Shown here in pieces: positions 2,939 to 31,410 of a DNA stretch of 32,000 bases. This stretch comes from Candidatus Nitrospira inopinata (GTDB lineage Bacteria > Nitrospirota > Nitrospiria > Nitrospirales > Nitrospiraceae): assembly GCF_001458695.1 (NCBI RefSeq), contig NZ_LN885086.1:1110001-1142000 (forward strand), written 5' to 3'. Position numbers and translations under genes: made by a program. How positions within the stretch are numbered: the first letter of the stretch is position 1; the number at the start of each line of letters is the position of its first letter. The notes under the pieces are model-generated. The model was not told the DNA's origin, did no database searches, and saw only the letters and a list, made by a program, of their open reading frames with translations.

Positions 2939-4033
2939 ATGTCGGACGAAGGAGTCCACACCTCGCTTGTGCGTAAGCTGAAATTACGAGAGGGCACCAA
3001 TACCGCCGTCTTGTTCGGTCATCATGATCGGCATCTCAAGCTGATCGAACATGAATTGGGGGTGCGGTTGTCGGCTCGGGGCGAAGAATTGACCATGGAC
3101 GGTCAACCCGAAGCCGTCCGTCAAGCGGAACGGGTGGTGCTCGAGCTGGCCGCGTTGGCGAACGAAGGCATCATCCTGCAAACGGAAGACGTCACCCACG
3201 CGTTGAGCGCCTTGCGACAGGAGCCGGACGCCGCGATCAGAGACGTCCTCTGCGGGCAGGCGACCATCGTCACCAAAAAACGGCTCATCGGTCCCAAGTC
3301 TCCGACCCAGAAAACGTACATCGAGGCGATCAACAAACACGACGTCGTCATCGCCATCGGCCCGGCCGGAACGGGCAAGACCTATTTGGCCATGGCCATG
3401 GCGGTGAGCGCGTTGATGAAAAAAGAAGTCAGCCGGATCATTCTGGCGAGACCCGCCGTCGAGGCCGGAGAAAAACTCGGGTTTCTGCCGGGCGACCTCT
3501 ATCAGAAAGTCAACCCCTACCTTCGCCCCCTGTACGACGCGCTGTTCGACATGATGGACGTGGAGCGAGCCAACCGTCTGATCGAGCGGGGAGACATCGA
3601 AATCGCGCCGCTGGCGTTCATGCGCGGGCGCACGCTGAACGACTCGTTCGTCATTCTCGACGAAGCGCAAAACGCCACCGCCGAGCAGATGAAAATGTTT
3701 CTCACGCGGTTGGGATTCCACTCGAAGATGGTCGTGACGGGAGACATCACCCAGGTGGACTTGCCGAATGACCGGGTGTCGGGATTGATCGAAGTCAAGG
3801 ACGTGCTCCGCGACGTGGACGGCATCGCGTTCGTGCATTTCGACGACAAGGACGTCGTGCGACACCGCCTGGTCCAGAACATCATCAAGGCCTACGATCG
3901 CTATCAAGCAACCGGCGCCGAGGGGTCGGGTCAAGGCCGACGGCGCGCGCCTTTCCACTCGTCTTCGTCCAGGCATCGCAAACCGTCTCCGGCCTCGGTG
4001 CCACCGGATGATGTTTTCGGCCAACCCCACTGA
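2939..4033 (+). CDS. phoH: PhoH-like ATPase (PhoH/YbeZ family)
   Basis: Walker A GPAGTGKTYLAMAMAV and Walker B-like FVILDEAQN, with typical PhoH C-terminal blocks (VVTGDITQVDLP). It is followed by ybeY with a TGATG stop/start overlap. Confidence 0.9.
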   Translation: MSDEGVHTSLVRKLKLREGTNTAVLFGHHDRHLKLIEHELGVRLSARGEELTMDGQPEAVRQAERVVLELAALANEGIILQTEDVTHALSALRQEPDAAIRDVLCGQATIVTKKRLIGPKSPTQKTYIEAINKHDVVIAIGPAGTGKTYLAMAMAVSALMKKEVSRIILARPAVEAGEKLGFLPGDLYQKVNPYLRPLYDALFDMMDVERANRLIERGDIEIAPLAFMRGRTLNDSFVILDEAQNATAEQMKMFLTRLGFHSKMVVTGDITQVDLPNDRVSGLIEVKDVLRDVDGIAFVHFDDKDVVRHRLVQNIIKAYDRYQATGAEGSGQGRRRAPFHSSSSRHRKPSPASVPPDDVFGQPH

Positions 4034-4512
4034 TGGCCGTCTTTCTGCGCGTCCGCCTCAAGCGGTTGTCGAAACGACAAGACTCGCTCGTGCGCGCGGC
4101 GCGAACGATTCTCGACATGGTCGGAGAGCCGAAGTCGGAATTGAGCGTGGAGTTGGTCGGCGACGGGCGGATGCGCCGTTTGAACAGAGTCTATCGGGGG
4201 AAAGATCGGACCACCGACGTGTTGGCGTTTGCGATGCGGGAGACGAAGTCTCCCTGCCGGAGGCTCCTGGGCGACGTGGTCATCTCCGTTCCCACGGCGA
4301 TGCGTCAAGCGAAAGAAGCGGGGCGGTCGCTGAACGAGGAAATCGCCGCGCTGTTGGTGCACGGGGTGTTGCATTTGTGCGGGTATGACCATGAGAGGAA
4401 TGAACGGGAGGCCGCCCGGATGAGGCGGCGCGAACGAGCCGTGTTGCGGGCGATGGAAGCCGTTCCTTGCTTGCTGAAACGACGGGCCCGACAAGCAAAA
4501 GGGAGACTCTGA
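4033..4512 (+). CDS. ybeY: rRNA maturation endoribonuclease YbeY
   Basis: Signature metal-binding motif HGVLHLCGYDHE. Size is about 159 aa. It sits in the conserved position after phoH. Confidence 0.9.
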   Translation: MAVFLRVRLKRLSKRQDSLVRAARTILDMVGEPKSELSVELVGDGRMRRLNRVYRGKDRTTDVLAFAMRETKSPCRRLLGDVVISVPTAMRQAKEAGRSLNEEIAALLVHGVLHLCGYDHERNEREAARMRRRERAVLRAMEAVPCLLKRRARQAKGRL

Positions 4513-4514
4513 TC

Positions 4515-5450
4515 GTGGGGTGGTTTCAGCGGTTGCAAGAGGGATTGGGGAAGACGCGGCAAGCCGTGCGGCAATCGCTCGACCACATGCTGGGGCGGAC
4601 GCCGACACCGGCGCTGCTGGAAGAGCTTGAAGCGTCGCTGCTCGGCGCCGACCTCGGCGCCCGCGTCGTCGATCGATTGATCCGCCGAGTCAACGAAGAG
4701 GCGCGCGGCGAAGCAGCCTCGTCGTCCCAGGGCGTTCAAAACGTGTTGAGCCGAGCCCTGTACGACGTCCTCAAGCAGGTCGCCGGCCCTTCGCTCCTTG
4801 AGTTGATCGACCGAGGCCCCCGACCCTTCGTCGTGCTCGCGGTCGGCGTGAACGGGGTGGGAAAAACCACGACGATCGCGAAAATGGCGCGACGGCTGGT
4901 GCAGGCCGGACGGCGGCCGTTGTTGGTCGCGGGCGACACGTTTCGCGCCGCGGCGATCGAGCAGTTGCAGGTATGGGCGGATCGGTTGGAAGTGCCGATC
5001 GTCCGCCAGCGCCATGGGGCCGATCCCGCGTCCGTGGCCTTCGACGGCATCGCCGCGGCCAAGGCCCGCGGGACGGACGTGGTGCTCATCGATACGGCGG
5101 GCCGGTTGCACACCAAGTCCAACCTGATGGAAGAGTTGCGCAAGGTCAAGCGCGTCGTCGGTCGCGAGTTGCCCGGCGCGCCCCACGAGGTGCTGCTGGT
5201 GTTGGACGCCACGGTCGGCCAAAACGCCCTGGCGCAGGCCAGACAATTTCACGAGGCGGTGGGCGTCACCGGCTTGGTGTTGACGAAATTGGATGGCACG
5301 GCTCGAGGCGGCATCGTCGTGGCCATTGCCGAGGAATTAAAGATACCGGTTCGCCTGGTGGGTGTCGGAGAAGGAGTTGAAGACCTACAGGACTTCAATC
5401 CCGAGGCCTTCGTTGCGGCGCTGTTTGGAGAACCGGCCGCCGGCTCGTAG
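4515..5450 (+). CDS. ftsY: Signal recognition particle receptor FtsY (short, NG-domain form)
   Basis: GTPase motifs GVNGVGKTTTIAKMA, DTAGR and TKLDGTARGG. I prefer the in-frame GTG at 4515, which is preceded by GGGAG at 4501-4505, over the track start 4467, which overlaps ybeY by 46 nt. Confidence 0.9.
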   Translation: MGWFQRLQEGLGKTRQAVRQSLDHMLGRTPTPALLEELEASLLGADLGARVVDRLIRRVNEEARGEAASSSQGVQNVLSRALYDVLKQVAGPSLLELIDRGPRPFVVLAVGVNGVGKTTTIAKMARRLVQAGRRPLLVAGDTFRAAAIEQLQVWADRLEVPIVRQRHGADPASVAFDGIAAAKARGTDVVLIDTAGRLHTKSNLMEELRKVKRVVGRELPGAPHEVLLVLDATVGQNALAQARQFHEAVGVTGLVLTKLDGTARGGIVVAIAEELKIPVRLVGVGEGVEDLQDFNPEAFVAALFGEPAAGS

Positions 5451-14804: not shown

Positions 14805-16244
14805 ATGTTACAGACCATCGACGACCTTCCGCAGCCGATCGGAGAATTCAAACCGCTCGATCAATGGCAGGCCCATCTGAACCGGATTTTCTACGGGCTT
14901 CGAGGGGACACGCTCCGATCGTATTATCAAACGTTCGCTTCCGCCGATTATCGACTCGCCCACGCGCTCGCCGCCGACTACTATGAAAAAGTCGTGGAGC
15001 GAGAGAAGGCCGACACTCGTCAATCGTCAGGCAGCAGTCGTATGGCGAACGGCGAATCACGGTTGATGGTGATGGAGTGGGGGCCCGGCAACGGCAATCT
15101 GGCCGCCTGTTTTCTCTGCCATCTCAAAACGGTCGATCAAGAGGGCGCGGTCTATCCCCGTGTGCGATACCTCATGGTCGATTGGGACCGGGCGGTGTTG
15201 GAAGGAGCGTTGGCCCATCCGGACTTGGCGGCGCATCGGGATCGCGTGGAGGTTCATTGCGGCTCGATTGAACAGGTGACGGGGGTGGGCGATGGAACGG
15301 TCGATCGGATCATCTGCAACGAGTTGTGGAACGATTTGCCGACCAAGCTGATGGCCAAGAACGCGGGGGGCCTTGAAGAGGAGTACGTCCGGCCGAACGT
15401 GAGCGGGGCGCTGCATGCCGGGATCCACGACTGGTCCGCCTTCCTACGGGCCTTTGACGCGAAGGATATCGACCATCTGAAAAGTTGCCCTCCCTTTCTT
15501 GATGACTTGGTCTGGGAAAAAGAGCATCGCGCCGTCGAATGGAAGCAGGTTCCCTATCGGAAAACCATCGTAGAGTTCTTCAAAGAAATCGATCAACGCG
15601 TGTTGGTGCCGGTGAACCTTGGCGCCTTCGCCGCTTTGAAAGAAGCCAAGCGGCTGCTGGCGCCCGATGCCATCGGCTTCAGCGCCTTCGACGCCGGCAC
15701 GGCGGATCTGAAGGTCTTGAACGATCCGGACAAACCCTGTTACGGCCTGTTCGGCGGACAATACAGTTTCATGATCAATTTTGCGTTGGTCGAAGCGGTG
15801 GCCCGGCATCTGGGGTTCACGCGCGTGGCGCTCGAGCCGCAGCGCGAATTCGTCGGTCGATCGTTGAACACCAACGTCATCACGCTTATGGACCTGTTGG
15901 CCGTGCATCCGTCCGCCGGGCCGAAGCTTCGATCGTGGGAGCAGGATCGGCTCGCGCTGAAGACGATCAAGGCGTTGAACGAGACGTACGAGAGCCCCTA
16001 CCGGCGGCGGATTGATTTTCCGCTGCCCACGGACGCCCCGCCGGACGAGCGTGAAACGTTGAGCGCCCTTGCGCGTTCCTTGAAAGACGACGGAATTCCC
16101 GATACCGTCGCCTACGTCACGGAAGAAGAACTCGCCCGCGCACGGAAAGATCTGGAGGAGATCGGGTACGATCCGGATGCCATCGGCATGGTGTTGCATG
16201 CTCCTCCAAGCCCCGTCGAGTATTGCCACTTCACCTGCCGGTGA
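14805..16244 (+). CDS. Putative class I SAM-dependent methyltransferase, MidA/NDUFAF7-like (Methyltransf_28-type) with a long C-terminal extension
   Basis: Motif I-like VMEWGPGNGNLA, an acidic post-I residue in YLMVDWD, and IICNELWNDLP, which resembles the ANE(L/F)xDALP block of the MidA family. ATG preceded by GGGGG. The function call is tentative. Confidence 0.55.
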   Translation: MLQTIDDLPQPIGEFKPLDQWQAHLNRIFYGLRGDTLRSYYQTFASADYRLAHALAADYYEKVVEREKADTRQSSGSSRMANGESRLMVMEWGPGNGNLAACFLCHLKTVDQEGAVYPRVRYLMVDWDRAVLEGALAHPDLAAHRDRVEVHCGSIEQVTGVGDGTVDRIICNELWNDLPTKLMAKNAGGLEEEYVRPNVSGALHAGIHDWSAFLRAFDAKDIDHLKSCPPFLDDLVWEKEHRAVEWKQVPYRKTIVEFFKEIDQRVLVPVNLGAFAALKEAKRLLAPDAIGFSAFDAGTADLKVLNDPDKPCYGLFGGQYSFMINFALVEAVARHLGFTRVALEPQREFVGRSLNTNVITLMDLLAVHPSAGPKLRSWEQDRLALKTIKALNETYESPYRRRIDFPLPTDAPPDERETLSALARSLKDDGIPDTVAYVTEEELARARKDLEEIGYDPDAIGMVLHAPPSPVEYCHFTCR

Positions 16245-16318: not shown

Positions 16319-17347
16319 TTACCCGGAGGGGGCAAGGGGAGCGAGCAGAAGAGAGCTCAAGGGACTTGCCAACAGAGGAGCCAACATCAGGCCGAATTGA
16401 GGAACGTGATCGTGCAACGACAGAAACAGACCGTGCTGTTTGAGCCACGCTTCCTGAGCCGAGGGAGACCGGGTGTCGGGGTCGGCTTGTAAGAGAGCTT
16501 GTGCTCGTTTCGCCAGGATGAAGGCGGCGGGAAGGTAGGTGGATACCAACATCAAGGTGAAGGTGACGCCCCAAAAAAGCGTGACGGCCATAGCCGCTCC
16601 AAGTACCGCTTCGTGCGCGGCCTTGTCGGAGATCAACGCCGCCGGCCATCGAAGCCAGGCCCCCATATGGAGGACTCCAGCCACGAGGACAGCCGAGGAC
16701 GCGCCCAGGACTTCCTTCAGTCGTTTCATCTGCGTCGCACAAAAATCAGGGTCGGCTTGATCGCCCGTGAGCGGAGGAGCGAGCGTGCTGCAAGCGGCCA
16801 GAATCGCCACCACCGGCACCACGACGGCCTCCACATTGATGAGGGAAACCACGGTCTTGGCATAGCGCAAGAGTTCCGGGCTGATTCGCTCGGGGCCGGC
16901 TTGGCGCAGGTTCTCGTAACTGAAGGCGAACACCGCCCGATAAAGCGTATGGGTTTCATCCAGCGCCAACAGAGAGAAGAGTCCCATTGCGGCGAGGATG
17001 GTGCCGACCCCCGCGACCACGGCCATCCGTGGTCGCGGATGAGATTGATACACAATCATCCCGCAGAGAATCGAGGCATAGAGTCCGGCGACCAGCATGA
17101 TGACGACGGTGGTGAGCCAGAGGTACCGTGATTTGACCTCCACCAGAAAGTGGGAGGGATTGAAAGAATGAGTGGAGCGTTCTGAGTCAGGGTGCATCAG
17201 CCGGTTCGTCAGATAGTGAAAATTGTCCACCGTGATGTTGGAGCTGAATTCAAACAAACCGATCGCAAGCGATAGGATGAACAGTGACGGGATCATGAGG
17301 AACAGAAACCGATAGTCGGAAGCGGAGGCGGAAGAGGGCGAAGTCAT
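16319..17347 (-). CDS. Polytopic inner-membrane protein of unknown function
   Basis: At least six or seven hydrophobic helices (for example FLMIPSLFILSLAIGLF, WLTTVVIMLVAGLYASILCGMIVY, AMAVTLFWGVTFTLMLVSTYLPAAFIL). The start is set at the ATG at 17347 (alternative 17404). The track start 17515 would run through the promoter of the divergent riboswitch operon. Confidence 0.55.
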   Translation of the reverse strand: MTSPSSASASDYRFLFLMIPSLFILSLAIGLFEFSSNITVDNFHYLTNRLMHPDSERSTHSFNPSHFLVEVKSRYLWLTTVVIMLVAGLYASILCGMIVYQSHPRPRMAVVAGVGTILAAMGLFSLLALDETHTLYRAVFAFSYENLRQAGPERISPELLRYAKTVVSLINVEAVVVPVVAILAACSTLAPPLTGDQADPDFCATQMKRLKEVLGASSAVLVAGVLHMGAWLRWPAALISDKAAHEAVLGAAMAVTLFWGVTFTLMLVSTYLPAAFILAKRAQALLQADPDTRSPSAQEAWLKQHGLFLSLHDHVPQFGLMLAPLLASPLSSLLLAPLAPSG

Positions 17348-17492
17348 GATCGTCGGCCTTGACGCAACGGTCTTCACGCGCGAGACATGAGAGGGAGGGG
17401 GCATGCTAGCACAATCGCTTGATGCGGGCGAGTCGGCACGTCGGGAAAAAGTCGTTCTTGCAAATCTTCGGAAACGTCGAGGGAGGGAAGGC

Positions 17493-17521
17493 TTGACTTC
17501 GATAAGGAAGACCAATAGGAT
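17493..17521 (+). promoter_or_regulatory. Candidate sigma70-type promoter of the riboswitch-permease-hydrolase unit
   Basis: TTGACT (17493-17498), a 17-nt spacer, then TAGGAT (17516-17521). The predicted transcription start falls in the A-run about 10-15 nt before the aptamer. Confidence 0.4.
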
Positions 17522-17539
17522 GCTATAAAAAATCCAAAA

Positions 17540-17637
17540 GGAAAACTAGGGTTCCGGCTTTCGCCAAGAAAGTGTCTGGGCCAAGAGTTTTCGGTCTCGC
17601 ATAACGAGGCTCCACGGAGGGATAAAAGCCCGGGAGA
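17540..17637 (+). promoter_or_regulatory. ykkC: Guanidine-I riboswitch aptamer (ykkC-yxkD leader type)
   Basis: Three conserved blocks are present: CTAGGGTTCCGG (17546-17557), TGGGCCAAGAG (17577-17587) and ACGGAGGGATAAAAGCCCGGGAGA (17614-17637). They correspond to the near-invariant blocks of the guanidine-I family as I recall them. Local hairpins CTTTC/GAAAG (17558-17572) and CTCG/CGAG (17596-17608) lie between the blocks. The element is immediately 5' of a transporter/hydrolase pair. Confidence 0.85.
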
Positions 17638-17663
17638 TCATGTACGACGGTACATGGCCTTTT
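17638..17663 (+). terminator. Hairpin plus U-run abutting the aptamer (candidate riboswitch expression platform / attenuator)
   Basis: TCATGTAC-GACG-GTACATGG forms an 8-bp stem (one G-U pair), followed by CC-TTTT. The A-run of the aptamer (AAAAGCC, 17624-17630) is nearly complementary to GGCCTTTT (17656-17663). Confidence 0.35.
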
Positions 17664-17696
17664 GGGAGTGAGTCCTTCGAGCGGGAGGCCCTCGTT

Positions 17697-19247
17697 ATGG
17701 AAATCCACCCCACAGATCCTCCACAGGACAGTCCCTCGACGATCGAGCCGGGAAAAGCGGTCGTATTCCCCGAAGAAAACGCAGGTCACGTTCATTCTGC
17801 GCACGCGGCGAGCGCCTCCCCGACGCTCCATCGCAGTCTCAGTCTCTGGAACAGCTTGACCATCGGGTTTGCGACGGTCTCCCCGGTTGCGGGGCTCTAC
17901 GCCATTATCGGCGTTCAGACGGTCGTCGCCGGAGGCGGATGGTTTCCCGCCCTGGCTCTGTGTTTGGTGATGCAGTTGCTGGTCGCGACGGTCTACGCGG
18001 AACTGTCCTCGCAGATCCCGATCGCGGGGGGCGCGTACAAATGGGCGAGGCAACTCGGCGGAGAAATCACGGGCACGTACGCCGGCGCCATTTACATCAG
18101 CTCCACGATCGCGATGCTGACCACCACCGCCTATACCGGCGGCATCTGGCTGGCGATTTTTTTTGGATCCAACAGTGAAACGGGTTTGAACCTGGTCCTC
18201 TGGGGAGCGGCGTTCATGCTGGTCTGCACCGTGCTGAACCTCGTCCACGTCTCGGTCTTTAAGCTGCTCATCTCTCTCGGCGTCTACGCGGAAATCGTCG
18301 GTTCATTTGGCGTCGCGCTTCTGCTGTTCCTCTTTTTCCGGCAGCATGAATTCTCGGAACTGTTCGCGCATCTTGGGACCGGGACCGCGCCCAGTAAAAC
18401 CGCTGCGTTTTTGGCGGCGCTCGCCGTATCGGGGTGGGCCTTCATCGGCTTCGACGCCTGCTCGACCATCGCCGAAGAAACGCACGACCCCAAACGGATG
18501 GTGCCGCGCGCGATCTTTTTCTCACTCTGCATGGTCGGAAGCGTGGTGCTCTTCAATTCCGCCGCCCTGACCCTGAGCTTTCACCGCGATACCCTGCAAC
18601 AGACCAGCGCCGCGTCCGACCCCGTCACGCCCGTGATCGTCGACAATTTCGGCGCCTGGGCGGAAACCCCGTTCCTGGCCATCGTCTTGGTGGCGTTCTT
18701 GGCTTGCGGCTCGTCGATGGTCCGGTACACCTCCCGCATCGTGTTTTCCATGGCCCGCGAAGGAAGTCTGCCGGACGCTCTCAGTCGGGTCACCGCCGCG
18801 GGCGCGCCGCGCCGCGCCGTCCTGTTCACGGTCGCCCTGGCCACGCTGGGATTGTTGTTCGGACTCAATGATGAAGCGGTCGCCACGGTGCTGGCGTTCG
18901 GCACGGGTGGGTTGTACGCCATGTTCGCGATGACCACGGGAGTCGGGCTCTATACCCGTCTTACCGGCCGGTGGGATCCCTCGTTGGGTCACCTGAAGTT
19001 GGGCTCGTGGGGACTTCTGATCAATACGGTGGCGTTTCTCTGGTCGGTGTTTGAATTCGTCAATATCGCGTGGCCGCGTCCCTACGCCGTTGCCCCCGAT
19101 GCGCCCTGGTGGCAACTCTGGGCCGTCCCGCTGGTGCTCGGCGGCATTCTCGCCTCGACGACGCTGTCCGTCATCGTCGGCAGAAACGGCCCGCCGGTTT
19201 ATCTGGGAAAGGTCAAATCGGGAAAGGCCGAGCCCGGTCAAGAATGA
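17697..19247 (+). CDS. APC-superfamily amino acid/polyamine-type permease (candidate guanidine importer)
   Basis: Polytopic sequence typical of APC permeases (LSLWNSLTIGFATVSPVAGLY, GWAFIGFDACSTIAEETHDPKRMVPRAI). I prefer the ATG at 17697, which has GGGAGG 8 nt upstream, over the track start 17640, which lies 2 nt after the aptamer. Confidence 0.85.
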   Translation: MEIHPTDPPQDSPSTIEPGKAVVFPEENAGHVHSAHAASASPTLHRSLSLWNSLTIGFATVSPVAGLYAIIGVQTVVAGGGWFPALALCLVMQLLVATVYAELSSQIPIAGGAYKWARQLGGEITGTYAGAIYISSTIAMLTTTAYTGGIWLAIFFGSNSETGLNLVLWGAAFMLVCTVLNLVHVSVFKLLISLGVYAEIVGSFGVALLLFLFFRQHEFSELFAHLGTGTAPSKTAAFLAALAVSGWAFIGFDACSTIAEETHDPKRMVPRAIFFSLCMVGSVVLFNSAALTLSFHRDTLQQTSAASDPVTPVIVDNFGAWAETPFLAIVLVAFLACGSSMVRYTSRIVFSMAREGSLPDALSRVTAAGAPRRAVLFTVALATLGLLFGLNDEAVATVLAFGTGGLYAMFAMTTGVGLYTRLTGRWDPSLGHLKLGSWGLLINTVAFLWSVFEFVNIAWPRPYAVAPDAPWWQLWAVPLVLGGILASTTLSVIVGRNGPPVYLGKVKSGKAEPGQE

Positions 19248-19332
19248 AGGCCGTCATTCGCCAAGTCTTGTACCGTCAGAGGGTTCGAACAAGGGAGGGA
19301 GTCCATTCATCATCTTGTAGAAAGGAGCGATC

Positions 19333-20481
19333 ATGGCGAAAAAGAGAACGTACCAAGGCAAGGTTCCATTGCATGACAACTATGGGCCGGAGGCGAAATA
19401 CGCTGTTGAGGCGGAGGCCTTGCTGCCGACGACGAAATTTGAAGAAGAAATCGCCCGCGGCCTTGAATTGGGTCTGCCCGGCGCCGATTCCATCAAGGAT
19501 CGCCGGATTCCCACCTTCAGCCGTGGAGAACTCCCCCACTTCGCCGGCATCAATACGTTTATCAAAGCTCCGTATGTGGAAGATGTGCGCAAATGCGGCC
19601 AGTACGACGTGGCGATTCTCGGCGCGCCGTTCGACGGCGGGACGACGTATCGTGCCGGCACCAGGTTCGGGCCCCAGGGCATTCGCAAGATTTCGGCGTT
19701 ATACGGGACGTACAGTTTCGAACTCGGCGTGGACCTGCGGGAATCCGTCTCGATCTGCGACGTCGGCGATATCTTTACGATTCCCGGCAACATCGAGAAA
19801 ACCTTCGATCAAGTCAGCAAGGGAGTCGGGCACGTCTTTGCCAGCGGTGCCTTTCCCGTGGTGCTCGGCGGAGACCATTCGCTCGGCTTCGCCACGGTAC
19901 GCGGCGTGGCGCAGCACTTAAACGGCAAGAAGCTCGGCATCCTTCACTTCGACAGGCACGTGGACACGCAGGACACCGATCTCGACGAGCGCATGCACAC
20001 CACGCCGTGGTTTCACGCGACGAACATTCCCAACGTACCGGCCAAGAATCTGGTGCAGATCGGCATCGGCGGGTGGCAAGCGCCCAGGCCCGGCGTGAAA
20101 GCGGGGCGGGAGCGTCAAACGACCATCATGACCGTGACCGATTGCGTGGAAATGGGCATTGAAAACGCCGCCAAGCAGGCGCTGGAAGTGGCGTTCGACG
20201 GCGTGGACGCCGTGTGGTTGAGTTTCGACGTCGATTGCTTGGACGCTGCGTTCGTGCCGGGCACCGGCTGGCCGGAGCCGGGCGGGTTTCTCCCGCGCGA
20301 GGTGCTCAAGTTTCTCCAGATCATCGCCGACACCAAGCCGCTGGCCGGCATGGAAATCGTCGAATGTGCGCCGCCCTACGATGCTGCCGAGATCACCAGC
20401 CTCATGGCCACGCGGGTCATCTGCGACGTGCTGGCCTGTCAGGTGCGATCCGGACACTTGGGCAATCGAAAGAAACGCTGA
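19333..20481 (+). CDS. Arginase/agmatinase-family ureohydrolase, guanidinase-like
   Basis: Binuclear-metal ligand motifs GGDHSLGF, FDRHVDT and SFDVDCLDAAFVPGTGWPEPGG. AAGGAG ribosome-binding site before the ATG. An N-terminal extension of about 70 aa relative to SpeB-size enzymes. Lies in the riboswitch-controlled unit. Confidence 0.9.
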   Translation: MAKKRTYQGKVPLHDNYGPEAKYAVEAEALLPTTKFEEEIARGLELGLPGADSIKDRRIPTFSRGELPHFAGINTFIKAPYVEDVRKCGQYDVAILGAPFDGGTTYRAGTRFGPQGIRKISALYGTYSFELGVDLRESVSICDVGDIFTIPGNIEKTFDQVSKGVGHVFASGAFPVVLGGDHSLGFATVRGVAQHLNGKKLGILHFDRHVDTQDTDLDERMHTTPWFHATNIPNVPAKNLVQIGIGGWQAPRPGVKAGRERQTTIMTVTDCVEMGIENAAKQALEVAFDGVDAVWLSFDVDCLDAAFVPGTGWPEPGGFLPREVLKFLQIIADTKPLAGMEIVECAPPYDAAEITSLMATRVICDVLACQVRSGHLGNRKKR

Positions 20482-20516
20482 GATGCATTGATCGTCGAGC
20501 GACGGCGCGGCGCATC

Positions 20517-20544
20517 GAGGGGCTTGCCTCCGAGCGGGCCCCTC
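20517..20544 (+). other. GC-rich hairpin downstream of the hydrolase gene (possible 3'-end or stability element; no U-run)
   Basis: GAGGGGC (20517-20523) and GCCCCTC (20538-20544) form a perfect 7-bp stem with a 14-nt loop, 36 nt after the stop codon. Confidence 0.2.
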
Positions 20545-20630
20545 AACCTCACGAGGCTTTCCTGACTTTCCGATTCATCGGACCCCCGTTCTAGTATAGA
20601 GTGATCCATACCACTGAGGAGGTGCACGCG

Positions 20631-22286
20631 ATGAAAGTCGCGATGGGCGTGTTGACTCTGGTCGCAGCGGTCGTCGGGCTTGTGTTGGCCTTGCCCTTTC
20701 TGATCGACCTCAATCGGTATCAAGACCAATACAAGCCGCTCATCGAAGATGCTCTCAACCGAACGATTGAGATTCAGGACGTCCGCCTGACCCTGTGGCC
20801 CACCATCGGCGCGCGGGTAACGGGTCTGTCCATTCTGGATGATCCGGCGTTCGGCGCGGGGCCCTTCGCCTCGGCGGCTTCGTTGGACGTGGGCGTGAAA
20901 CTGCTGCCGTTGCTGAGCGGAAAGATCGAAGTGAGGGAGATCACGCTGCGCGAACCCGTGGTGACGGTCGTCAAAAATCATCGCGGCGTCTTGAATGTGG
21001 CTACGCTTGGGCGAGCGGGGAGGGAGGCGCCGAGAGTCCCATCCCGCGCGCCGATTCCCTCGATGGAGGGGCCGCTCAAGATTTTAGGCATGTTGCCGGC
21101 CGATCGGGTGTCGATCGCGGGGGGTACGCTGACGTATCGAGATTTCTCGGCAGCGAAGCCCACCGAGTATGTCTTGCAGGATCTTAATCTGCTACTTCGG
21201 GCGATCAGGATCGGCCACACACCCAGTCTTCGCCTCGATGCCGTGGTCCAGCCCTTCAACCTGCCGTTGAAACTTGACGGGACGTTCGGTCCGCTGAAGG
21301 AAACGGCCGACATCGAAGCGATCAATGTTCGACTGAATCTGGGGAGCGCGCATTTCACCGTGACGGGGAGCGTCGTCGGCCACGATGCCGCGATGACCAT
21401 CAGTGCCCCGGCCGTCAATATGGCAGAGCTTCCCCTCGTCCCGCCGTTCATGAAGCCGGTTGCGATGAACGATTTCAAGATGGCGGTGGCGGTCAGGGGG
21501 CAGGAGGCCGAACTCACGGCTCTCTCTTTTCGGGTGTTCGGCGGACTGGCGAAGGGGCGGGGCAAAGTGGTCGCCGGCTCGGACGCACCGCCTTTCGACG
21601 GAACGGTCAGCATCGAGGGGCTCCATCTCGGCACGGCGTTCCGGACTTTCACGGATGCTCAAGTGTCAGTCAGTGGATCGGCGGACGCCACCCTTACATT
21701 CAAAGGTCGCGGCTTTGCCATCCAGGATCTGACCAGGTCGTTGGAGGGGACGGGGCGGATGGTCGTGAAGGACGGGACGATCGAAGGGGTGAATCTTCCT
21801 CGTGAGACGGTCGCGCTCCTGAACGCCGCCGGCATCCCCCTTGACGACACTCGCGCCATGACGTTTCGGACGATCGAAACAGATTACGTTGTGGGGCAAG
21901 GCATGGTCGCCGTGCAGCGGCTGTTGATGGAGGGGCGCGACGTTCAAGCGACGGGCGGCGGGACGATCGGCTTTGACCGCCGTCTGAGCCTGGCGGTGAC
22001 GGTGAGCCTCTCCCGGGACCTCAGTGAAAAAATTGCGGGGGTTTCGCCGGTCGCCAAACTCGCCATGCGAGACGGCAGAATGGTGCTCCCGCTCGTCATC
22101 GGCGGCACGGTTCAAGCGCCATCCTACAGGCTGGATCTCAAAGGCGTGACGGGGAACCTGCATGAGCTGATTCAACGGAAGGCGGCGCAAGTCGTCGATG
22201 GATTGCTCGGCGGTACGGTGCCGGACGTTCTCAAGCGTCGAGGACGGCCGTTGTTGAGCGAAATCCTTGGGGGATCGAGACCGTGA
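20631..22286 (+). CDS. AsmA-family outer-membrane biogenesis / lipid-transport-like protein
   Basis: N-terminal anchor followed by the typical AsmA opening: MKVAMGVLTLVAAVVGLVLALPFLIDLNRYQDQYKPLIEDAL. C-terminal AsmA_2-like region (GTIEGVNL..., LPLVIGGTVQAPSYRLD). ATG at 20631 with GAGGAGG 8 nt upstream. Confidence 0.8.
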   Translation: MKVAMGVLTLVAAVVGLVLALPFLIDLNRYQDQYKPLIEDALNRTIEIQDVRLTLWPTIGARVTGLSILDDPAFGAGPFASAASLDVGVKLLPLLSGKIEVREITLREPVVTVVKNHRGVLNVATLGRAGREAPRVPSRAPIPSMEGPLKILGMLPADRVSIAGGTLTYRDFSAAKPTEYVLQDLNLLLRAIRIGHTPSLRLDAVVQPFNLPLKLDGTFGPLKETADIEAINVRLNLGSAHFTVTGSVVGHDAAMTISAPAVNMAELPLVPPFMKPVAMNDFKMAVAVRGQEAELTALSFRVFGGLAKGRGKVVAGSDAPPFDGTVSIEGLHLGTAFRTFTDAQVSVSGSADATLTFKGRGFAIQDLTRSLEGTGRMVVKDGTIEGVNLPRETVALLNAAGIPLDDTRAMTFRTIETDYVVGQGMVAVQRLLMEGRDVQATGGGTIGFDRRLSLAVTVSLSRDLSEKIAGVSPVAKLAMRDGRMVLPLVIGGTVQAPSYRLDLKGVTGNLHELIQRKAAQVVDGLLGGTVPDVLKRRGRPLLSEILGGSRP

Positions 22287-22373
22287 GAACGGACGGGATC
22301 GACGAGATATACGCATATTTATGTAGCTAGTCAAACTCTTCCGAGTTGAGGTAAGATCGCACCTCCGAAGAAC

Positions 22374-24845
22374 GTGTCCTGGTATCGCCCGATCCCATTC
22401 TCGTGCTCCATGACCGAACGCATCTCCCCACAGTCCTCCGAAACGGGCAGCCGATTTCCGCGCGTGCCGCCCCCCGATCAACAGATGGAGCTGATGCTGG
22501 ACATCGATCGGGAGGATTATCGGTTTGCGCTCGAACAGGCCTCCGACATCATCTGCCGCACCAACCTTTCCGGCCGCATCACCTTCGCCAATCCCGCCGT
22601 GACCAGAATCCTGGGCTACGCGATGGTGGAAGTGCTCGGCCATCACATCACGGAATTCATTCGTGAGGATTATCGCGCGAAAGTGTGGTGGTTCCACGTG
22701 CGGCAGTTCCTGCGCGGCCGCCCGTCGAGCTATCTGGAACTCCCCCTGGTCGCCCGAACGGGCAAAGAAATTTGGGTCGGGCAAAACGTGCAACTGCTGC
22801 AACGGGACGAGGAAGTGATCGGCTTTCAAGCCGTGGTCCGCGATATTTCCGTCATCAAGCAAGCCGAGCAGGCGCGTCGCGCCAGTGAAGAGAAGCTCCA
22901 AAGTTTTTTTCATGACGCCCCGATCATGTATTTCACTCTGAACAGCGAGGGGACGATTCTGTCCGTGAATCGGTCCGGAGCCGAGCAACTCGGCTACACC
23001 ATGTCCGAGTTGGTGGGGCGGTCCATCTTGGACATGTTCCTGGTCGAGGATCGAGACAGCGTAAAGGTCCAAATGGAGACGTGTCTGGAGCGTCCCGGCG
23101 TCGTGTGCGAGTGGGAGCTGCGGAAAGTTCGGAGAGACGGCGCCACCATCCAGGTTCATGAGCGCGCGCGCGTCGTCCCCGGCAGCGACGGGCGGCCCGT
23201 CGTGCTCGTGGTCTGTCAGGATATTACCGAACGGGTTCGGCATGAGCGGGCGCTCAAGGAGATTTATCAACAGCTCGAACAACGGGTGATGGAACGGACG
23301 AGCGAGTTGCTGGCGGCCAACGAGGCGCTTCGCCAGACGACGTCGCAGCTCCAAACCCTGATCGAAGAATCGCCCTTTGCCATCATCGAACTGGATGAAA
23401 GCGCCAAGGTCGTCAGTTGGAATACCGCCGCCGCAAGCATCTTCGGGTGGACGGAGCAAGAAGTGGTGGGGGGCGAACTGCCGTATGTGCCGTGCAACGA
23501 AAAAGAGGAGGAACAATCGCTCCAACTTTGGCAATCGATCATGCAAGGCGTTCCGGTCAGAAACGTGGAGCTGCGTCGGCACCGGAAGGACGGCTCGACG
23601 GCCGAGATCAGTTTTTGGGGCGTGGCGCGCCGCAACGCCGAAGGGCGGGTGACGGGGGCGTTGGCGTTTTGCATCGACATTACTCAACAAAAACGACTGG
23701 AGCAACAGTTCCGGCAGGCTCAAAAGATGGAGGCGGTGGGGCGTCTGGGAGGAGGCATCGCGCACGATTTCAACAATCTCCTGACCGTCATCAACGGCTG
23801 CAGCGCCTTGCTGCTGGATCGGGTGCGGCGAGAGGACCCGATCCATCATCTGCTCGACGAAATATCCAAGGCGGGAGCTCGAGCCGCCGACCTGACGAGA
23901 CAACTTCTGGCGTTCAGCCGGCAACAAGTGCTCAAGCCGCAGCGCGTCGATCTGAATGAGTCTCTCAAGGGGATCACCTCCATGATCGAGAGGCTGATGG
24001 GCGAGGATATCGAAGTGGTGCTCGATCTTGACCCCGGTCTCTGGCCCATCCAGGTGGACAAGGGGCAAATCGACCAAGTGGTGATGAATCTGGCGGTCAA
24101 CGCGAGAGACGCGATGCCGGACGGCGGCAAGCTGACGCTTTCCACGGCCAATTTCGTCCTGCATCCGTGGACGCCGGTGTCCAATCCGCTGTTCACGCCC
24201 GGCGACTATGTGCAGTTGACCGTCCGCGACACCGGTTTGGGCATGGATCAGGACGTGCGCGCGCATCTCTTCGAGCCGTTCTTTACGACCAAAGAAGAGG
24301 GCAAGGGCACGGGGCTCGGACTCGCGACGGTGTATGGAATCGTCAAGCAAAGCCGCGGCGTCATCTTCGTCGACAGCGCGCCGGGCGAGGGCACGACGTT
24401 TGATCTCTATTTCCCGCGCTTCGTCGAGCAGGACGACGAGGTGGCGATCCCCCGGTCGTCGCGCCCCGTGCGGGGAGGCGAGCGGGTCATGCTCGTCGAA
24501 GACCAGGAGTCGGTGAGGGATCTCGTCTGTCTCGCCCTTGAGGAGTACGGCTATCAGGTGTTTAAAGCGGCGAACGGGGACGAGGCGTTTCGTCTGGCCG
24601 CCGTGATATCAGAGCCGATCGATGTCCTGGTGACGGACGTGGTGATGCCGCGCTTCACGGGACCGGTGGTCGCGGAACGGCTCAGGCAGCGGTGGCCGGG
24701 CCTCAGGGTGCTCTTCATGTCGGGTTACACGGAGCGAGTCAAACCGATGTTTCTCAATTCGCCGGGCACCCTGTTCATCCAAAAACCGTTTTTGCCGACC
24801 GAGTTGGCCGCGCAGTTGCGTCGGCTGCTTGACGATACCTTCTGA
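22374..24845 (+). CDS. Hybrid sensor histidine kinase: multiple PAS domains, HisKA, HATPase_c and C-terminal receiver
   Basis: Repeated PAS-like segments. H-box GGIAHDFNNLLTVI, N-box NLAVNARDAMPDGG, G-boxes DTGLGMD and GKGTGLGLATVYG. Receiver domain VMLVEDQ ... VLVTDVVMP ... KPF. The start is uncertain (ATG at 22410 is an alternative). Confidence 0.85.
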   Translation: MSWYRPIPFSCSMTERISPQSSETGSRFPRVPPPDQQMELMLDIDREDYRFALEQASDIICRTNLSGRITFANPAVTRILGYAMVEVLGHHITEFIREDYRAKVWWFHVRQFLRGRPSSYLELPLVARTGKEIWVGQNVQLLQRDEEVIGFQAVVRDISVIKQAEQARRASEEKLQSFFHDAPIMYFTLNSEGTILSVNRSGAEQLGYTMSELVGRSILDMFLVEDRDSVKVQMETCLERPGVVCEWELRKVRRDGATIQVHERARVVPGSDGRPVVLVVCQDITERVRHERALKEIYQQLEQRVMERTSELLAANEALRQTTSQLQTLIEESPFAIIELDESAKVVSWNTAAASIFGWTEQEVVGGELPYVPCNEKEEEQSLQLWQSIMQGVPVRNVELRRHRKDGSTAEISFWGVARRNAEGRVTGALAFCIDITQQKRLEQQFRQAQKMEAVGRLGGGIAHDFNNLLTVINGCSALLLDRVRREDPIHHLLDEISKAGARAADLTRQLLAFSRQQVLKPQRVDLNESLKGITSMIERLMGEDIEVVLDLDPGLWPIQVDKGQIDQVVMNLAVNARDAMPDGGKLTLSTANFVLHPWTPVSNPLFTPGDYVQLTVRDTGLGMDQDVRAHLFEPFFTTKEEGKGTGLGLATVYGIVKQSRGVIFVDSAPGEGTTFDLYFPRFVEQDDEVAIPRSSRPVRGGERVMLVEDQESVRDLVCLALEEYGYQVFKAANGDEAFRLAAVISEPIDVLVTDVVMPRFTGPVVAERLRQRWPGLRVLFMSGYTERVKPMFLNSPGTLFIQKPFLPTELAAQLRRLLDDTF

Positions 24846-26209: not shown

Positions 26210-26239
26210 TTGACAGCCGACATTCTTCAATGGTAGTGT
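26210..26239 (+). promoter_or_regulatory. Candidate sigma70-type promoter of the atpHAGDC operon
   Basis: TTGACA (26210-26215), an 18-nt spacer, then TAGTGT (26234-26239) with TG at the extended -10 position. It lies about 75 nt upstream of the atpH start. Confidence 0.35.
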
Positions 26240-26312
26240 GCCGGGTCAATTGTCGTGCGTTTCGCGCGAACGATTTTGTTTGTCCCACGATTCGGCAAGT
26301 GGATCACCGACA

Positions 26313-26852
26313 GTGATTAAAACGGCAGTTGCGCGGCGTTACGCACGGGCGCTCTTCGAGCTTCTCGACCCAGCCGATATCGAAGCCACTCGAGAGACCC
26401 TGAACGGCCTTGGACAAGCCATCAAGGAGTCCGGGGATCTCCGCTACGTTACCGCGTCACCGGCGTTCAGCGCCGAGGAGAAGATCTCCGTGTTGACGGA
26501 ATTGAGCGGTCGCTTTCGCTGTCCTTCGGAAGGGAAGGCCTTTCTCGGACAATTGGTCAGGAAAAATCGCATCGGGTTTTTGCCGGAAATTGCCGAGGCG
26601 TTCGGGAAGTTGGTCGATCAATCGAAAGGCGTGCAGCAAGTCTCAGTATCGTCGGCTACGGAGTTCTCCCAGGCCGAACGGGATCGGACTCAAGCGCGAC
26701 TGCGCGACGTCCTGAAGCGAGAAGTCGCGGTCACGTTTCATACCGATGCGAACCTCTTGGCCGGAGTCCGGATCCAAGTCGGGAACATGGTGGTCGACGG
26801 TACGGTCCGGGGCCGCTTGAACGATATCCAGTCATTGCTGACGAGAGAGTAG
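26313..26852 (+). CDS. atpH: F1Fo ATP synthase subunit delta (OSCP)
   Basis: Canonical N-terminus [16 protein letters not shown]. About 180 aa from the in-frame GTG at 26313 (the track start 26238 adds an implausible extension). Immediately precedes atpA. Confidence 0.85.
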
Positions 26853-26910
26853 GTCGCGGAGGTGGGATGGCCGTCCGGCGTCTCCCCGTCCTGCGGATGA
26901 AGGAGTGGTC

Positions 26911-28431
<1,521 letters not shown>

Positions 28432-28446
28432 ACGAAAGGCTCGGGA

Positions 28447-28480
28447 GAGAGGCTCCTCCTGAACGGATCTTGAGCCTCTC
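28447..28480 (+). other. Intercistronic hairpin between atpA and atpG
   Basis: GAGAGGCTC (28447-28455) and GAGCCTCTC (28472-28480) form a perfect 9-bp inverted repeat with a 16-nt loop, inside the 74-nt atpA-atpG spacer. Confidence 0.5.
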
Positions 28481-28505
28481 GATCGATACTTCGAAGTAAA
28501 ATACC

Positions 28506-29384
28506 ATGCCAAGTCTCCAATCGCTCCGCCGCAAGATCGCGGCGTTCAAGAACACCCAGAAGATCACGAAGGCCATGAAAATGGTGGCCGCCGCGAAGCT
28601 GAAACGCTCCCAGGACCGCATCCTGGCGGCCCGCCCCTACGCTCATAAAATGCGGGGTGTTTTGAGTAATTTAAGTCAACGGGTGAATCGCTCCGCCCAT
28701 CCGCTCCTGCAGAAGCGCGAGGGTAAAAAAGTCGAAGTGCTGGTGGTGACGAGCGACCGCGGTTTGTGCGGGGGGTTCAACGGCAACATCGTGCGACGGA
28801 GTGCGGAGTTCGTGAGGCAGTGCGAGGCGAGGGGAGTGGCGGTCCATCTGAGCATCGTCGGGCGAAAGGGTCGGGATTATTTTCGCCGCCGCGCGTGGCC
28901 GATTCGCCAAGAATGGACGGGGATTTTTGATAAGTTGAGTTTCGAGCACGCCATCGATATCGGCGGCGATCTCACGGATCATTTCATCCAAGGCACGTTC
29001 GATGAGCTCTACGTCGTGTACAATGAGTTCAAGTCGGCGATCCAGCAACGTGTGATCGTCGAGAAACTCTTTCCCGTCGATGCGGCCTCCGAATTCGGTG
29101 CGGCGCCGGTCGAAGGCGCGGCGGGCGGCGGCTATCTCTACGAGCCGGGTGAAGCGGAACTGTTGGACGTTCTGGTACCCAAGCATTTTCAAGTTCAAAC
29201 CTATAGAATTCTCCTGGAATCAGCCGCGGCCGAGCATGGGGCTCGCATGGCCGCCATGGACGGCGCGACGCGCAACGCCGGGCAGCTCATCAAAAAAGTC
29301 ACGCTGTACTACAACAAGACTCGGCAAGCGGCGATTACCAAGGAATTGATGGATATCGTAGGAGGCGCGGAAGCCCTGAAGTAG
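28506..29384 (+). CDS. atpG: F1 ATP synthase subunit gamma
   Basis: Canonical N-terminus MPSLQSLRRKIAAFKNTQKITKAMKMVAAAKL and C-terminus NKTRQAAITKELMDIVGGAEAL. Confidence 0.95.
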   Translation: MPSLQSLRRKIAAFKNTQKITKAMKMVAAAKLKRSQDRILAARPYAHKMRGVLSNLSQRVNRSAHPLLQKREGKKVEVLVVTSDRGLCGGFNGNIVRRSAEFVRQCEARGVAVHLSIVGRKGRDYFRRRAWPIRQEWTGIFDKLSFEHAIDIGGDLTDHFIQGTFDELYVVYNEFKSAIQQRVIVEKLFPVDAASEFGAAPVEGAAGGGYLYEPGEAELLDVLVPKHFQVQTYRILLESAAAEHGARMAAMDGATRNAGQLIKKVTLYYNKTRQAAITKELMDIVGGAEALK

Positions 29385-29496
29385 GGACTGTCGCAAGCGC
29401 ATTTCGCGACGCGCGATCAGAGAAGCGGGTGAGCCCCCCGTGGATCGATTCGTCGGTCAAGGGGCATGGAAACCAGACATCGATTTGGAAAGGTGA

Positions 29497-30942
<1,446 letters not shown>

Positions 30943-30987
30943 AAGTCGAAGACGCTATTACGGGTGCATGGCGAGAGAGAAGAAAAA

Positions 30988-31410
30988 ATGGCTGGGAAAT
31001 TCCTCTTGGAAGTCGTCACGCCGGAGAAGCTGTTGCTGAGCCAGCAGGTGGACGAGGTCATCGCGCCGGGTCTGGAAGGCGACTTCGGGGTCCTGCCGGG
31101 TCATTGTCATTTCCTCTCGATGTTGCGGATCGGGGAACTGCGGTATCGCGTCGGTGAGCAAATCAACCATATGGCCGTGCTTTGGGGGTATGCCGAGGTG
31201 ACGCCGACCAGGGTGACCGTCATGGCCGAGATCGCCGAGAAGGCCGAAGACATCGACGTGGAACGCGCCACGGCCAAAGTGGAAGAAGCGGAACGTCGGC
31301 TCAAGCAAGGAGGCCTGCCGTCCGACGTCAAGGAAGCTCAAATCAGCCTCGAAAAAGCCCGTCTGCGAAAAAAAATCGCGGAGCGGGCACGGAAGGTCGC
31401 CCACGCCTAA
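30988..31410 (+). CDS. atpC: F1 ATP synthase subunit epsilon
   Basis: Typical opening (FLLEVVTPEKLLLSQQVDEVIAPGLEGDFGVLPGH) and a C-terminal helical hairpin. I prefer the ATG at 30988 over the track start 30964. Confidence 0.9.
   Translation: MAGKFLLEVVTPEKLLLSQQVDEVIAPGLEGDFGVLPGHCHFLSMLRIGELRYRVGEQINHMAVLWGYAEVTPTRVTVMAEIAEKAEDIDVERATAKVEEAERRLKQGGLPSDVKEAQISLEKARLRKKIAERARKVAHA

Follow-up and report, generated by a model that had tools for sequence, protein, structure and literature searches.

A known guanidine utilisation locus of Candidatus Nitrospira inopinata and a possible translational expression platform for its guanidine-I riboswitch

A 32,000-nucleotide stretch of DNA from Candidatus Nitrospira inopinata (contig NZ_LN885086.1, positions 1,110,001 to 1,142,000 of the forward strand; hereafter the window) carries a guanidine-I riboswitch followed by genes for an APC-superfamily permease and a guanidinase, and taken as a whole this locus is very probably the guanidine utilisation operon of the organism. 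A sigma-70-type promoter would drive a leader with the guanidine-I aptamer, with guanidinium binding leading to expression of both genes; the permease would bring guanidine into the cell, and the Ni/Mn guanidinase would convert it to urea and ammonium, feeding urease and nitrification. For N. inopinata, PMC11410670 already describes the parts of the locus and the order in which they lie, how guanidine regulates them, and what they do in the physiology of the cell, and the locus is a rediscovery, being the type example of comammox guanidine work and not a new candidate. The analysis of the expression platform presented here is the sole addition, and is a refinement rather than a discovery.

Identity of the locus

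The identity of the locus is evident from its guanidinase, with all 382 of 382 residues (100%) identical in a PDB search to chain A of entry 9FEK, a crystal structure published for the guanidinase of N. inopinata (Palatinszky et al., Nature 2024; PMC11410670). At the nucleotide level, positions 16333-23481 of the window match NCBI contig CZJZ01000007.1 (GCA_001458755.1) with 0 mismatches in 7149 nt, and the gene calls of that contig agree with the present ones, the permease there also having 516 amino acids. Palatinszky et al. describe the riboswitch-permease-guanidinase triad of N. inopinata, with the riboswitch immediately 5' of the APC permease, and report that guanidine as sole substrate supports growth. 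On guanidine, the guanidinase protein was elevated (log10 fold change 1.2) and the permease protein was seen in 4/5 replicates compared with 1 ammonium replicate, with metatranscriptomes of guanidine-spiked activated sludge showing both transcripts up by a log2 fold change of about 2.6-2.7 (PMC11410670). The purified guanidinase, a Ni/Mn homohexamer, hydrolyses guanidine with a Km of 13.6 mM, and whole cells exhibit a guanidine Km(app) of 1.34 μM. Among comammox genomes with the riboswitch, the permease adjoins it in 56/56 and is then followed by the guanidinase in 46/56, with no ABC guanidine transporter reported near the switch (PMC11410670).

The initial annotation, made from the letters of the sequence, had inferred a guanidine-induced import and hydrolysis module, which coincides with the published description of the same locus, and the guanidine use by comammox Nitrospira that it cited is this very work. 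Its presentation of the operon as a candidate no longer applies, the locus having been published and tested in 2024. Guanidine is a widespread nitrogen compound whose use lets complete ammonia oxidizers grow, of relevance to nitrification in soils and wastewater plants, as established in 2024 on the same locus.

The enzyme and its translation signal lie as follows:

19323..19327, + strand: guanidinase Shine-Dalgarno AGGAG, read from the sequence, inside the 85-nt spacer 19248-19332
19333..20481, + strand: guanidinase, GdmH-type, arginase fold, Ni/Mn enzyme, 382 aa, assigned by identity to 9FEK

The 382-aa ureohydrolase described earlier as lying 85 nt after the permease is this protein, which matches PF00491 (Arginase family) with an E value of 8e-77 over residues 92-367, its next-best PDB match being the Synechocystis guanidine hydrolase (7ESR/7OI1, E 1e-171). 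The specificity residues Thr105, His222, and Trp313 (N. inopinata numbering), which are the residues required for guanidinase calls in PMC11410670, are all present, and both guanidine hydrolysis and the Ni/Mn centre have been published for the identical protein (9FEK; PMC11410670). No Ni-loading accessory genes were found among the open reading frames (ORFs) of the 32-kb window scanned against Pfam, which accords with PMC11410670.

Promoter and guanidine-I aptamer

The 5' end of the operon comprises the following elements:

17493..17521, + strand: sigma-70-like promoter, TTGACT (17493-17498), 17-nt spacer, TAGGAT (17516-17521), from a promoter scan
17535..17638, + strand: guanidine-I (ykkC subtype 1) aptamer, from the RF00442 match
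17541-17546/17587-17592 (P1), 17593-17599/17605-17611 (P2), and 17619-17621/17629-17631 (P3 core), + strand: aptamer helices, from RF00442 and covariation

The promoter, present as the TTGACT-N17-TAGGAT element reported in the initial annotation, is the only sigma-70-like site found by the scan in 17300-20800, with its -35 box (TTGACT/GTGACT) kept at the same distance from the aptamer across Nitrospira loci, and would place the transcription start near 17528. In the closest relatives of the window (L001-L003, L005, L034) the -35 region CTTGACTTTG is tandemly duplicated, approximately 50-75 nt 5' of the aptamer; the window has a single copy.

Positions 17535-17638 on the + strand score 94.5 bits with RF00442 (gathering score 63; E 3.7e-16) and span model positions 1-107 of 107, this being the one match above gathering score when the window is scanned end to end with Rfam 15. 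At the permissive setting of E<=10, 17450-17760 returned no other Rfam family, and no PRPP/ppGpp-type (phosphoribosyl pyrophosphate/guanosine tetraphosphate) or subtype-2 relative. For comparison, permease homologues were collected from one genome per GTDB species, yielding 80 loci (72-97% identity) from comammox and other Nitrospira, Nitrosospira, and Nitrosomonas, and an alignment of 64 related leaders (A1) was prepared, of which 12 representatives were used for comparison of folds. In this alignment helices P1, P1a/b, P2, and P3 of the aptamer pair in 97.5% of cells, with 9 pairs changed on both sides; slid controls reach <=58.9% and 0/500 shuffles reach the observed level, the close relatedness of the 64 leaders inflating all such shuffle-based measures of covariation.

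The outer conserved blocks are exactly as quoted in the initial annotation, and the middle block (GGGCCAAGAG, compared with the consensus GGUCCGAGAG) carries the two substitutions it noted, both in unpaired columns that are variable among relatives too. Full-length score and helix covariation agree with membership of guanidine-I, and subtype 1 is indicated by RF00442 being the sole family matched and by the guanidine-related genes downstream, such that the riboswitch claim stands, with the covariance model above its gathering threshold and the helices covarying. The RNA at 17535-17638 is given here as a predicted guanidinium-binding guanidine-I aptamer, with the published induction of both genes by guanidine as indirect evidence.

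Aptamer and enzyme together bear on the fallback considered in the initial annotation, namely an ordinary agmatinase paired with an amino-acid/polyamine permease; on this reading the RNA match would be coincidental or the RNA would sense another ligand. The best NCBIfam matches of the hydrolase are indeed agmatinase models, albeit below cutoff (203 vs 302; 168 vs 174.3), and entry 9FEK itself is titled 'Putative agmatinase 2'. However, the hydrolase is identical to a proven guanidine-hydrolysing enzyme and carries the guanidine-specificity residues, the aptamer scores 31 bits over its gathering score with no subtype-2 family matched, and both genes are guanidine-induced (PMC11410670). We regard this explanation as having almost no probability, and the enzyme and induction data in the literature already refute it.

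The expression platform

The switch probably acts mainly on translation initiation, via sequestration of the ribosome-binding site (RBS) of the permease gene, and not on termination, a preference held with modest confidence because no terminator was found and because the anti-RBS pairing is kept in 64/64 leaders with compensatory changes. The elements involved are:

17534..17540, + strand: 5' strand (CCAAAAG) of a proposed closing helix 'P0', partner CUUUUGG at 17659-17665, from aptamer-enforced folds
17600..17613, + strand: anti-RBS segment CAUAACGAGGCUCC, comprising the P2 loop, P2 3' strand, and following CC, complementary to 17684-17699
17629..17666, + strand: stem-loop 'H3', P3 3' strand and tail CCCGGGAG (17629-17636) with CUUUUGGG (17659-17666), around hairpin 17638-17645/17650-17657, from the minimum-free-energy fold
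17684..17699, + strand: permease RBS, Shine-Dalgarno GGGAGG (17684-17689), spacer, and ATG (17697-17699), from conservation

At minimum free energy, 17530-17715 is predicted to fold into a nested rod (-75.6 kcal/mol, z -4.15), in which CAUAACGAGG (17600-17609, P2 loop and 3' strand) pairs perfectly over 10 bp with CCUCGUUAUG (17690-17699, start codon included), and CUCC (17610-17613) pairs with GGAG of the Shine-Dalgarno. The geometry of this pairing is retained among the relatives, with the start codon lying 54-66 nt past the aptamer in 64/64 leaders and the spacer between Shine-Dalgarno and AUG nearly invariant. Across the 64 leaders the 14 pairs of the anti-RBS helix are paired in 93.3% of cells, with compensatory columns in which AU is replaced by GC in 12 cells (AU 42/GU 10/GC 7 in one column, AU 57/GC 5 in the other). 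Examples include CAUAGCG:CGCUAUG (L014), CAUGGCG:UGCCAUG (L060/62/69/70), and CGUGAC:GUCAUG (Nitrosospira), with a further case in L032. The duplex is predicted in 64/64 leaders (-12.7 to -20.9 kcal/mol), cognate partners being more stable than permuted ones in 2000/2000 permutations, and the window duplex is predicted at -24.4 kcal/mol compared with -15.2 +/- 3.0 for shuffles, 7/2000 of which reach it.

The rod is the minimum-free-energy fold in 10/12 representatives, and is missing from L078. The RBS (17684-17699) is more accessible in folds with the aptamer enforced: its mean unpaired probability goes from 0.15 in the free ensemble to 0.44 in the window, and from 0.12-0.26 to 0.39-0.56 in 10/12 representatives, with L078 and L052 barely shifting. 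In the same aptamer-enforced folds, 17659-17665 pairs with the 5' leader at 17534-17540 to form P0, lengthening P1. P0 pairs in 85.5% of cells, 3 of its pairs having changed on both sides, and covaries between Nitrospira clades (CCAAAAG:CUUUUGG, CGAAAG:CUUUCG, GAAGGC:GCCUUC). As these column counts are blurred by register shifts between clades, alignment-free energies of cognate and non-cognate duplexes were used too, with cognate P0 duplexes averaging -9.10 kcal/mol compared with -7.33 +/- 0.20 for permuted partners (0/2000). On this modelling, the P0 helix is suggestive only.

These observations are consistent with a mechanism in which, when no ligand is present, the leader would adopt the long nested rod, with 17600-17613 paired to the Shine-Dalgarno and AUG (17684-17699) and the P3 3' strand (17629-17636) paired to 17659-17666. 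With ligand bound, P2 and P3 would stay in the aptamer, 17659-17665 would pair with 17534-17540 as P0, and the RBS would be freed. One strand would toggle between P0 in the bound state and the P3 3' strand in the free state, and the P2 3' strand between P2 and the RBS. The choice of fold would be kinetic, being made during transcription, since folding predictions favour the rod over the aptamer fold by 11-23 kcal/mol.

A canonical guanidine-I transcriptional ON switch offers a different account, in which the stem 17629-17666 would terminate transcription (intrinsically or with assistance from Rho) when ligand is absent, P3 would hold the 5' strand of this stem when ligand is bound, such that RNA polymerase reads through, and the complementarity to the RBS would be secondary. 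The literature assumes such a mechanism both for the N. inopinata locus and for the riboswitch class; the last 8 residues of the aptamer do pair into a downstream stem, as in the Dickeya dadantii ykkC terminator (PMC5340920), and guanidine raises transcripts of both genes (PMC11410670). However, no canonical intrinsic terminator or terminator-like site was found by the scan between the end of the aptamer (17638) and the start codon (17697), such that the terminator platform typical of guanidine-I, which is not a defining feature of it, was not seen here. After stem H3 the window reads AGUGAGUCC and most relatives read AAUUUAA, neither being a U-tract, the only U run in the aptamer-to-start region sitting within the stem. 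The pairing of H3 is kept through one-sided changes, and its hairpin has compensatory changes in the leaders of betaproteobacterial ammonia-oxidizing bacteria (AOB). Furthermore, the conserved, covarying pairing of the Shine-Dalgarno and AUG would have no role in a terminator. We consider termination the less probable mechanism, and on the unlikely side overall.

Several points weigh against sequestration of the RBS as the principal mechanism. The 11-23 kcal/mol gap is far beyond what ligand binding can pay, and kinetic control is something we infer, with the Shine-Dalgarno still partly paired in the aptamer-enforced folds. The leaders are closely related, only 3/14 anti-RBS pairs are changed on both sides, five leaders (L027, L033, L044, L052, L054) carry an uncompensated mismatch, and P0 is absent from AOB leaders. 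Additionally, guanidine-I is regarded in the literature as an ON switch of transcription (PMC11410670, PMC12186494, PMC5340920, PMC12704784), and transcripts in the metatranscriptomes rise with guanidine (log2 fold change about 2.6; PMC11410670), a rise that a purely translational switch explains only indirectly, via protection of the mRNA by ribosomes or Rho polarity. If true, translational action would correct an assumption running through the literature, and would be relevant to leaders used as guanidine sensors.

The permease and its relatives

17697..19247, + strand: APC-superfamily permease, putative guanidine importer, 516 aa, from PF13520 and PF00324

The permease lies on the same strand behind the aptamer, where the initial annotation had placed it, and matches PF13520 (AA_permease_2; E 3.5e-35, 122.2 bits vs gathering 27) and PF00324 (AA_permease; E 3.5e-27, 95.6 bits vs gathering 24.6). 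Its best NCBIfam match is TIGR03428 ('permease, urea carboxylase system') at 163 bits, well below the cutoff of 740.45, and by sequence comparison the permease belongs to a clade related to, but distinct from, TIGR03428. Among the protein matches listed, 120 homologues are all at least 77% identical, all from Nitrospira, and carry generic names. A PDB search returned remote APC transporters only (best E 3e-12) and no close solved structure.

The start at 17697 is backed by the GGGAGG Shine-Dalgarno, by CGTTATG being kept in relatives, and by the public 516-aa gene call. A start at the in-frame ATG 17640 (535-aa ORF) was rejected, this codon sitting in the conserved hairpin and being followed by TAC-TGA in most relatives. 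A few relatives differ at the start region, with L025 carrying a deletion that takes out the Shine-Dalgarno and start (near 3929-4020), and L044 an ATG to AAG change with an in-frame GTG 3 bases upstream (near 2841-2910); the CGTGATG leaders L027, L033, L052, and L054 may use an upstream GTG start.

The aptamer blocks lie directly 5' of the permease in 64/80 loci, with no RF00442 match in the other 16/80, 4 of which have the contig cut at the leader. The guanidinase follows the permease on the same strand in 47/80 loci, and in the close clade is 94-99% identical to that of the window; it is convergent to the permease in 14/80 and absent from the fetched DNA in 19/80. The recurrence of this permease clade behind the aptamer and ahead of the guanidinase, a comparison suggested in the initial annotation, is borne out by these counts. 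Within the close comammox clade (L001-L047), the guanidinase retains 94-99% amino acid identity compared with 81-97% for the co-transcribed permease.

In the loci with a convergent guanidinase (L048, L050, L052, L053, L057, L059, L061, L063, L064, L067, L068, L074, L076, L080) the enzyme is approximately 90% identical, and 8/14 also lack an aptamer before the permease. A second riboswitch before these convergent genes was considered and rejected, with no aptamer found on the minus strand of any locus within the fetched DNA, and as judged from their sequences these guanidinase genes would seem to lie outside the control of a riboswitch.

In Nitrosospira L058, Nitrosomonas L078, and Nitrospiraceae L062, the riboswitch and permease are followed by UAAP1/UAAP2 (carboxyguanidine deiminase, CgdAB) and a urea/guanidine carboxylase. 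All that the guanidinase and CgdAB/carboxylase loci have in common is guanidine, and the presence of two unrelated guanidine-degrading pathways behind one permease clade is the best available argument that guanidine is the likely substrate, in agreement with the best, albeit sub-cutoff, NCBIfam match being a urea-carboxylase-system permease.

The permease would accordingly be read as importing guanidine, in keeping with its description as 'putative' and 'predicted' in PMC11410670 and as 'most likely' the guanidine importer in a 2025 review, wording with which the caution of the initial annotation, that APC-family permeases are not known biochemically as guanidine importers, still agrees. A published measurement of guanidine transport for this permease, looked for in the literature, was not found, which weighs against its assignment as an importer. 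This leaves some room for a permease that moves another solute (urea, a substituted guanidine, or an amino acid) or exports one, with guanidine entering by another route, as might also be suggested by matches to generic APC models only, with the best curated family far under its cutoff and no close relative of solved structure in the PDB. Against this, in 64/80 relatives the permease gene comes first after a guanidine-specific aptamer, and the same riboswitch-permease module is joined to two non-homologous guanidine pathways, only one of which yields urea directly. Furthermore, an ABC guanidine transporter near the switch has not been reported for comammox genomes, and whole-cell guanidine uptake has micromolar affinity (PMC11410670). 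This alternative is considered improbable.

The permease would probably have to concentrate guanidine, because whole cells half-saturate at 1.34 μM whilst the enzyme has a Km of 13.6 mM. If true, a concentrative importer would bridge this ~10,000-fold gap, and it would need to concentrate guanidine enough for an enzyme of millimolar Km together with a riboswitch of micromolar Kd. Taken jointly, a three-helix kinetic translational switch (anti-RBS, anti-P3 stem, and a PRPP/ppGpp-like P0) combined with a concentrative, high-affinity APC guanidine importer is a tentative proposal, its chances falling a little short of even.

Genomic context

20517..20544, + strand: GC-rich 11-bp hairpin after the guanidinase stop, followed by no U-tract, from the fold of the spacer (z -0.55, not beyond shuffles)

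This hairpin may mark the end of the operon, although the assignment is weak. Downstream, across the spacer 20482-20631, lies an AsmA-family gene on the + strand (start 20632, Shine-Dalgarno GAGGAGG), and then a PAS/histidine-kinase/receiver hybrid (22374-24845, + strand), both of which are syntenic in the closest relatives only. Directly 5' of the riboswitch promoter, a divergent gene on the - strand (16319-17347) encodes a multi-pass membrane protein of ~342 aa with no Pfam, NCBIfam, or PDB match, which also precedes the riboswitch in 22 related loci (68-97% identity); neither the longer ORF reaching 17515 nor the ORF 16499-17131 on the opposite strand looks genuine. Further upstream, a 479-aa ORF (14805-16244, + strand) gives a weak Methyltransf_28 match (E 5e-7) and is 74-91% conserved in 21 related loci.

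The F1 ATP synthase genes (delta, alpha, gamma, beta, epsilon) lie ~6 kb downstream of the operon at 26238-31410 (+ strand), with PhoH, YbeY, and an SRP54-type GTPase (FtsY/Ffh family) at 2939-5450, and an ArnT-like transferase also in the window. Because such housekeeping genes (F1 ATP synthase, PhoH, YbeY, SRP54-type GTPase) flank it, the guanidine operon sits in the core chromosome with no obvious island. No urease, ABC transporter, or Ni chaperone was found among the window ORFs scanned against Pfam and NCBIfam.

Comparison with known systems

The aptamer is shared with the terminator-type ykkC riboswitch of Dickeya dadantii (PMC5340920), and an alternative downstream partner for its last 8 residues is common to both; in N. 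inopinata, however, the downstream stem lacks a U-tract and is nested in a longer helix over the Shine-Dalgarno and AUG. The overall fold is also shared with the PRPP and ppGpp riboswitches (ykkC subtype 2a, PMC6031431), although no Rfam subtype-2 family matches here. The PRPP aptamer has a helix that closes its two ends, a feature reported in the literature to be missing from guanidine aptamers, whereas the proposed P0 would use a strand ~20 nt past the aptamer, after an inserted hairpin, on the basis of prediction and limited covariation.

In Synechocystis sp. PCC 6803, a guanidine-I riboswitch controls gdmH (sll1077), a homologous Ni-dependent guanidinase with the same specificity residues. 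The N. inopinata enzyme differs from it in having an N-terminal extension and in lacking a C-terminal one (PMC11410670), and whilst Synechocystis has an ABC importer and dedicated Ni-loading accessory proteins, the window has an APC permease and no Ni chaperone among the genes scanned. The guanidine carboxylase operons of AOB and some Nitrospiraceae begin with the same riboswitch and the same permease clade (72-78% identity), with UAAP1/UAAP2 and an ATP-dependent urea/guanidine carboxylase replacing the guanidinase, and with the AOB leaders lacking P0.

The N. inopinata operon of PMC11410670 and PDB 9FEK is the same locus, with identical parts, gene order, and riboswitch position. That work assigned a transcriptional mechanism by citation and did not analyse the platform, whereas the comparison presented here favours sequestration of the ribosome-binding site.

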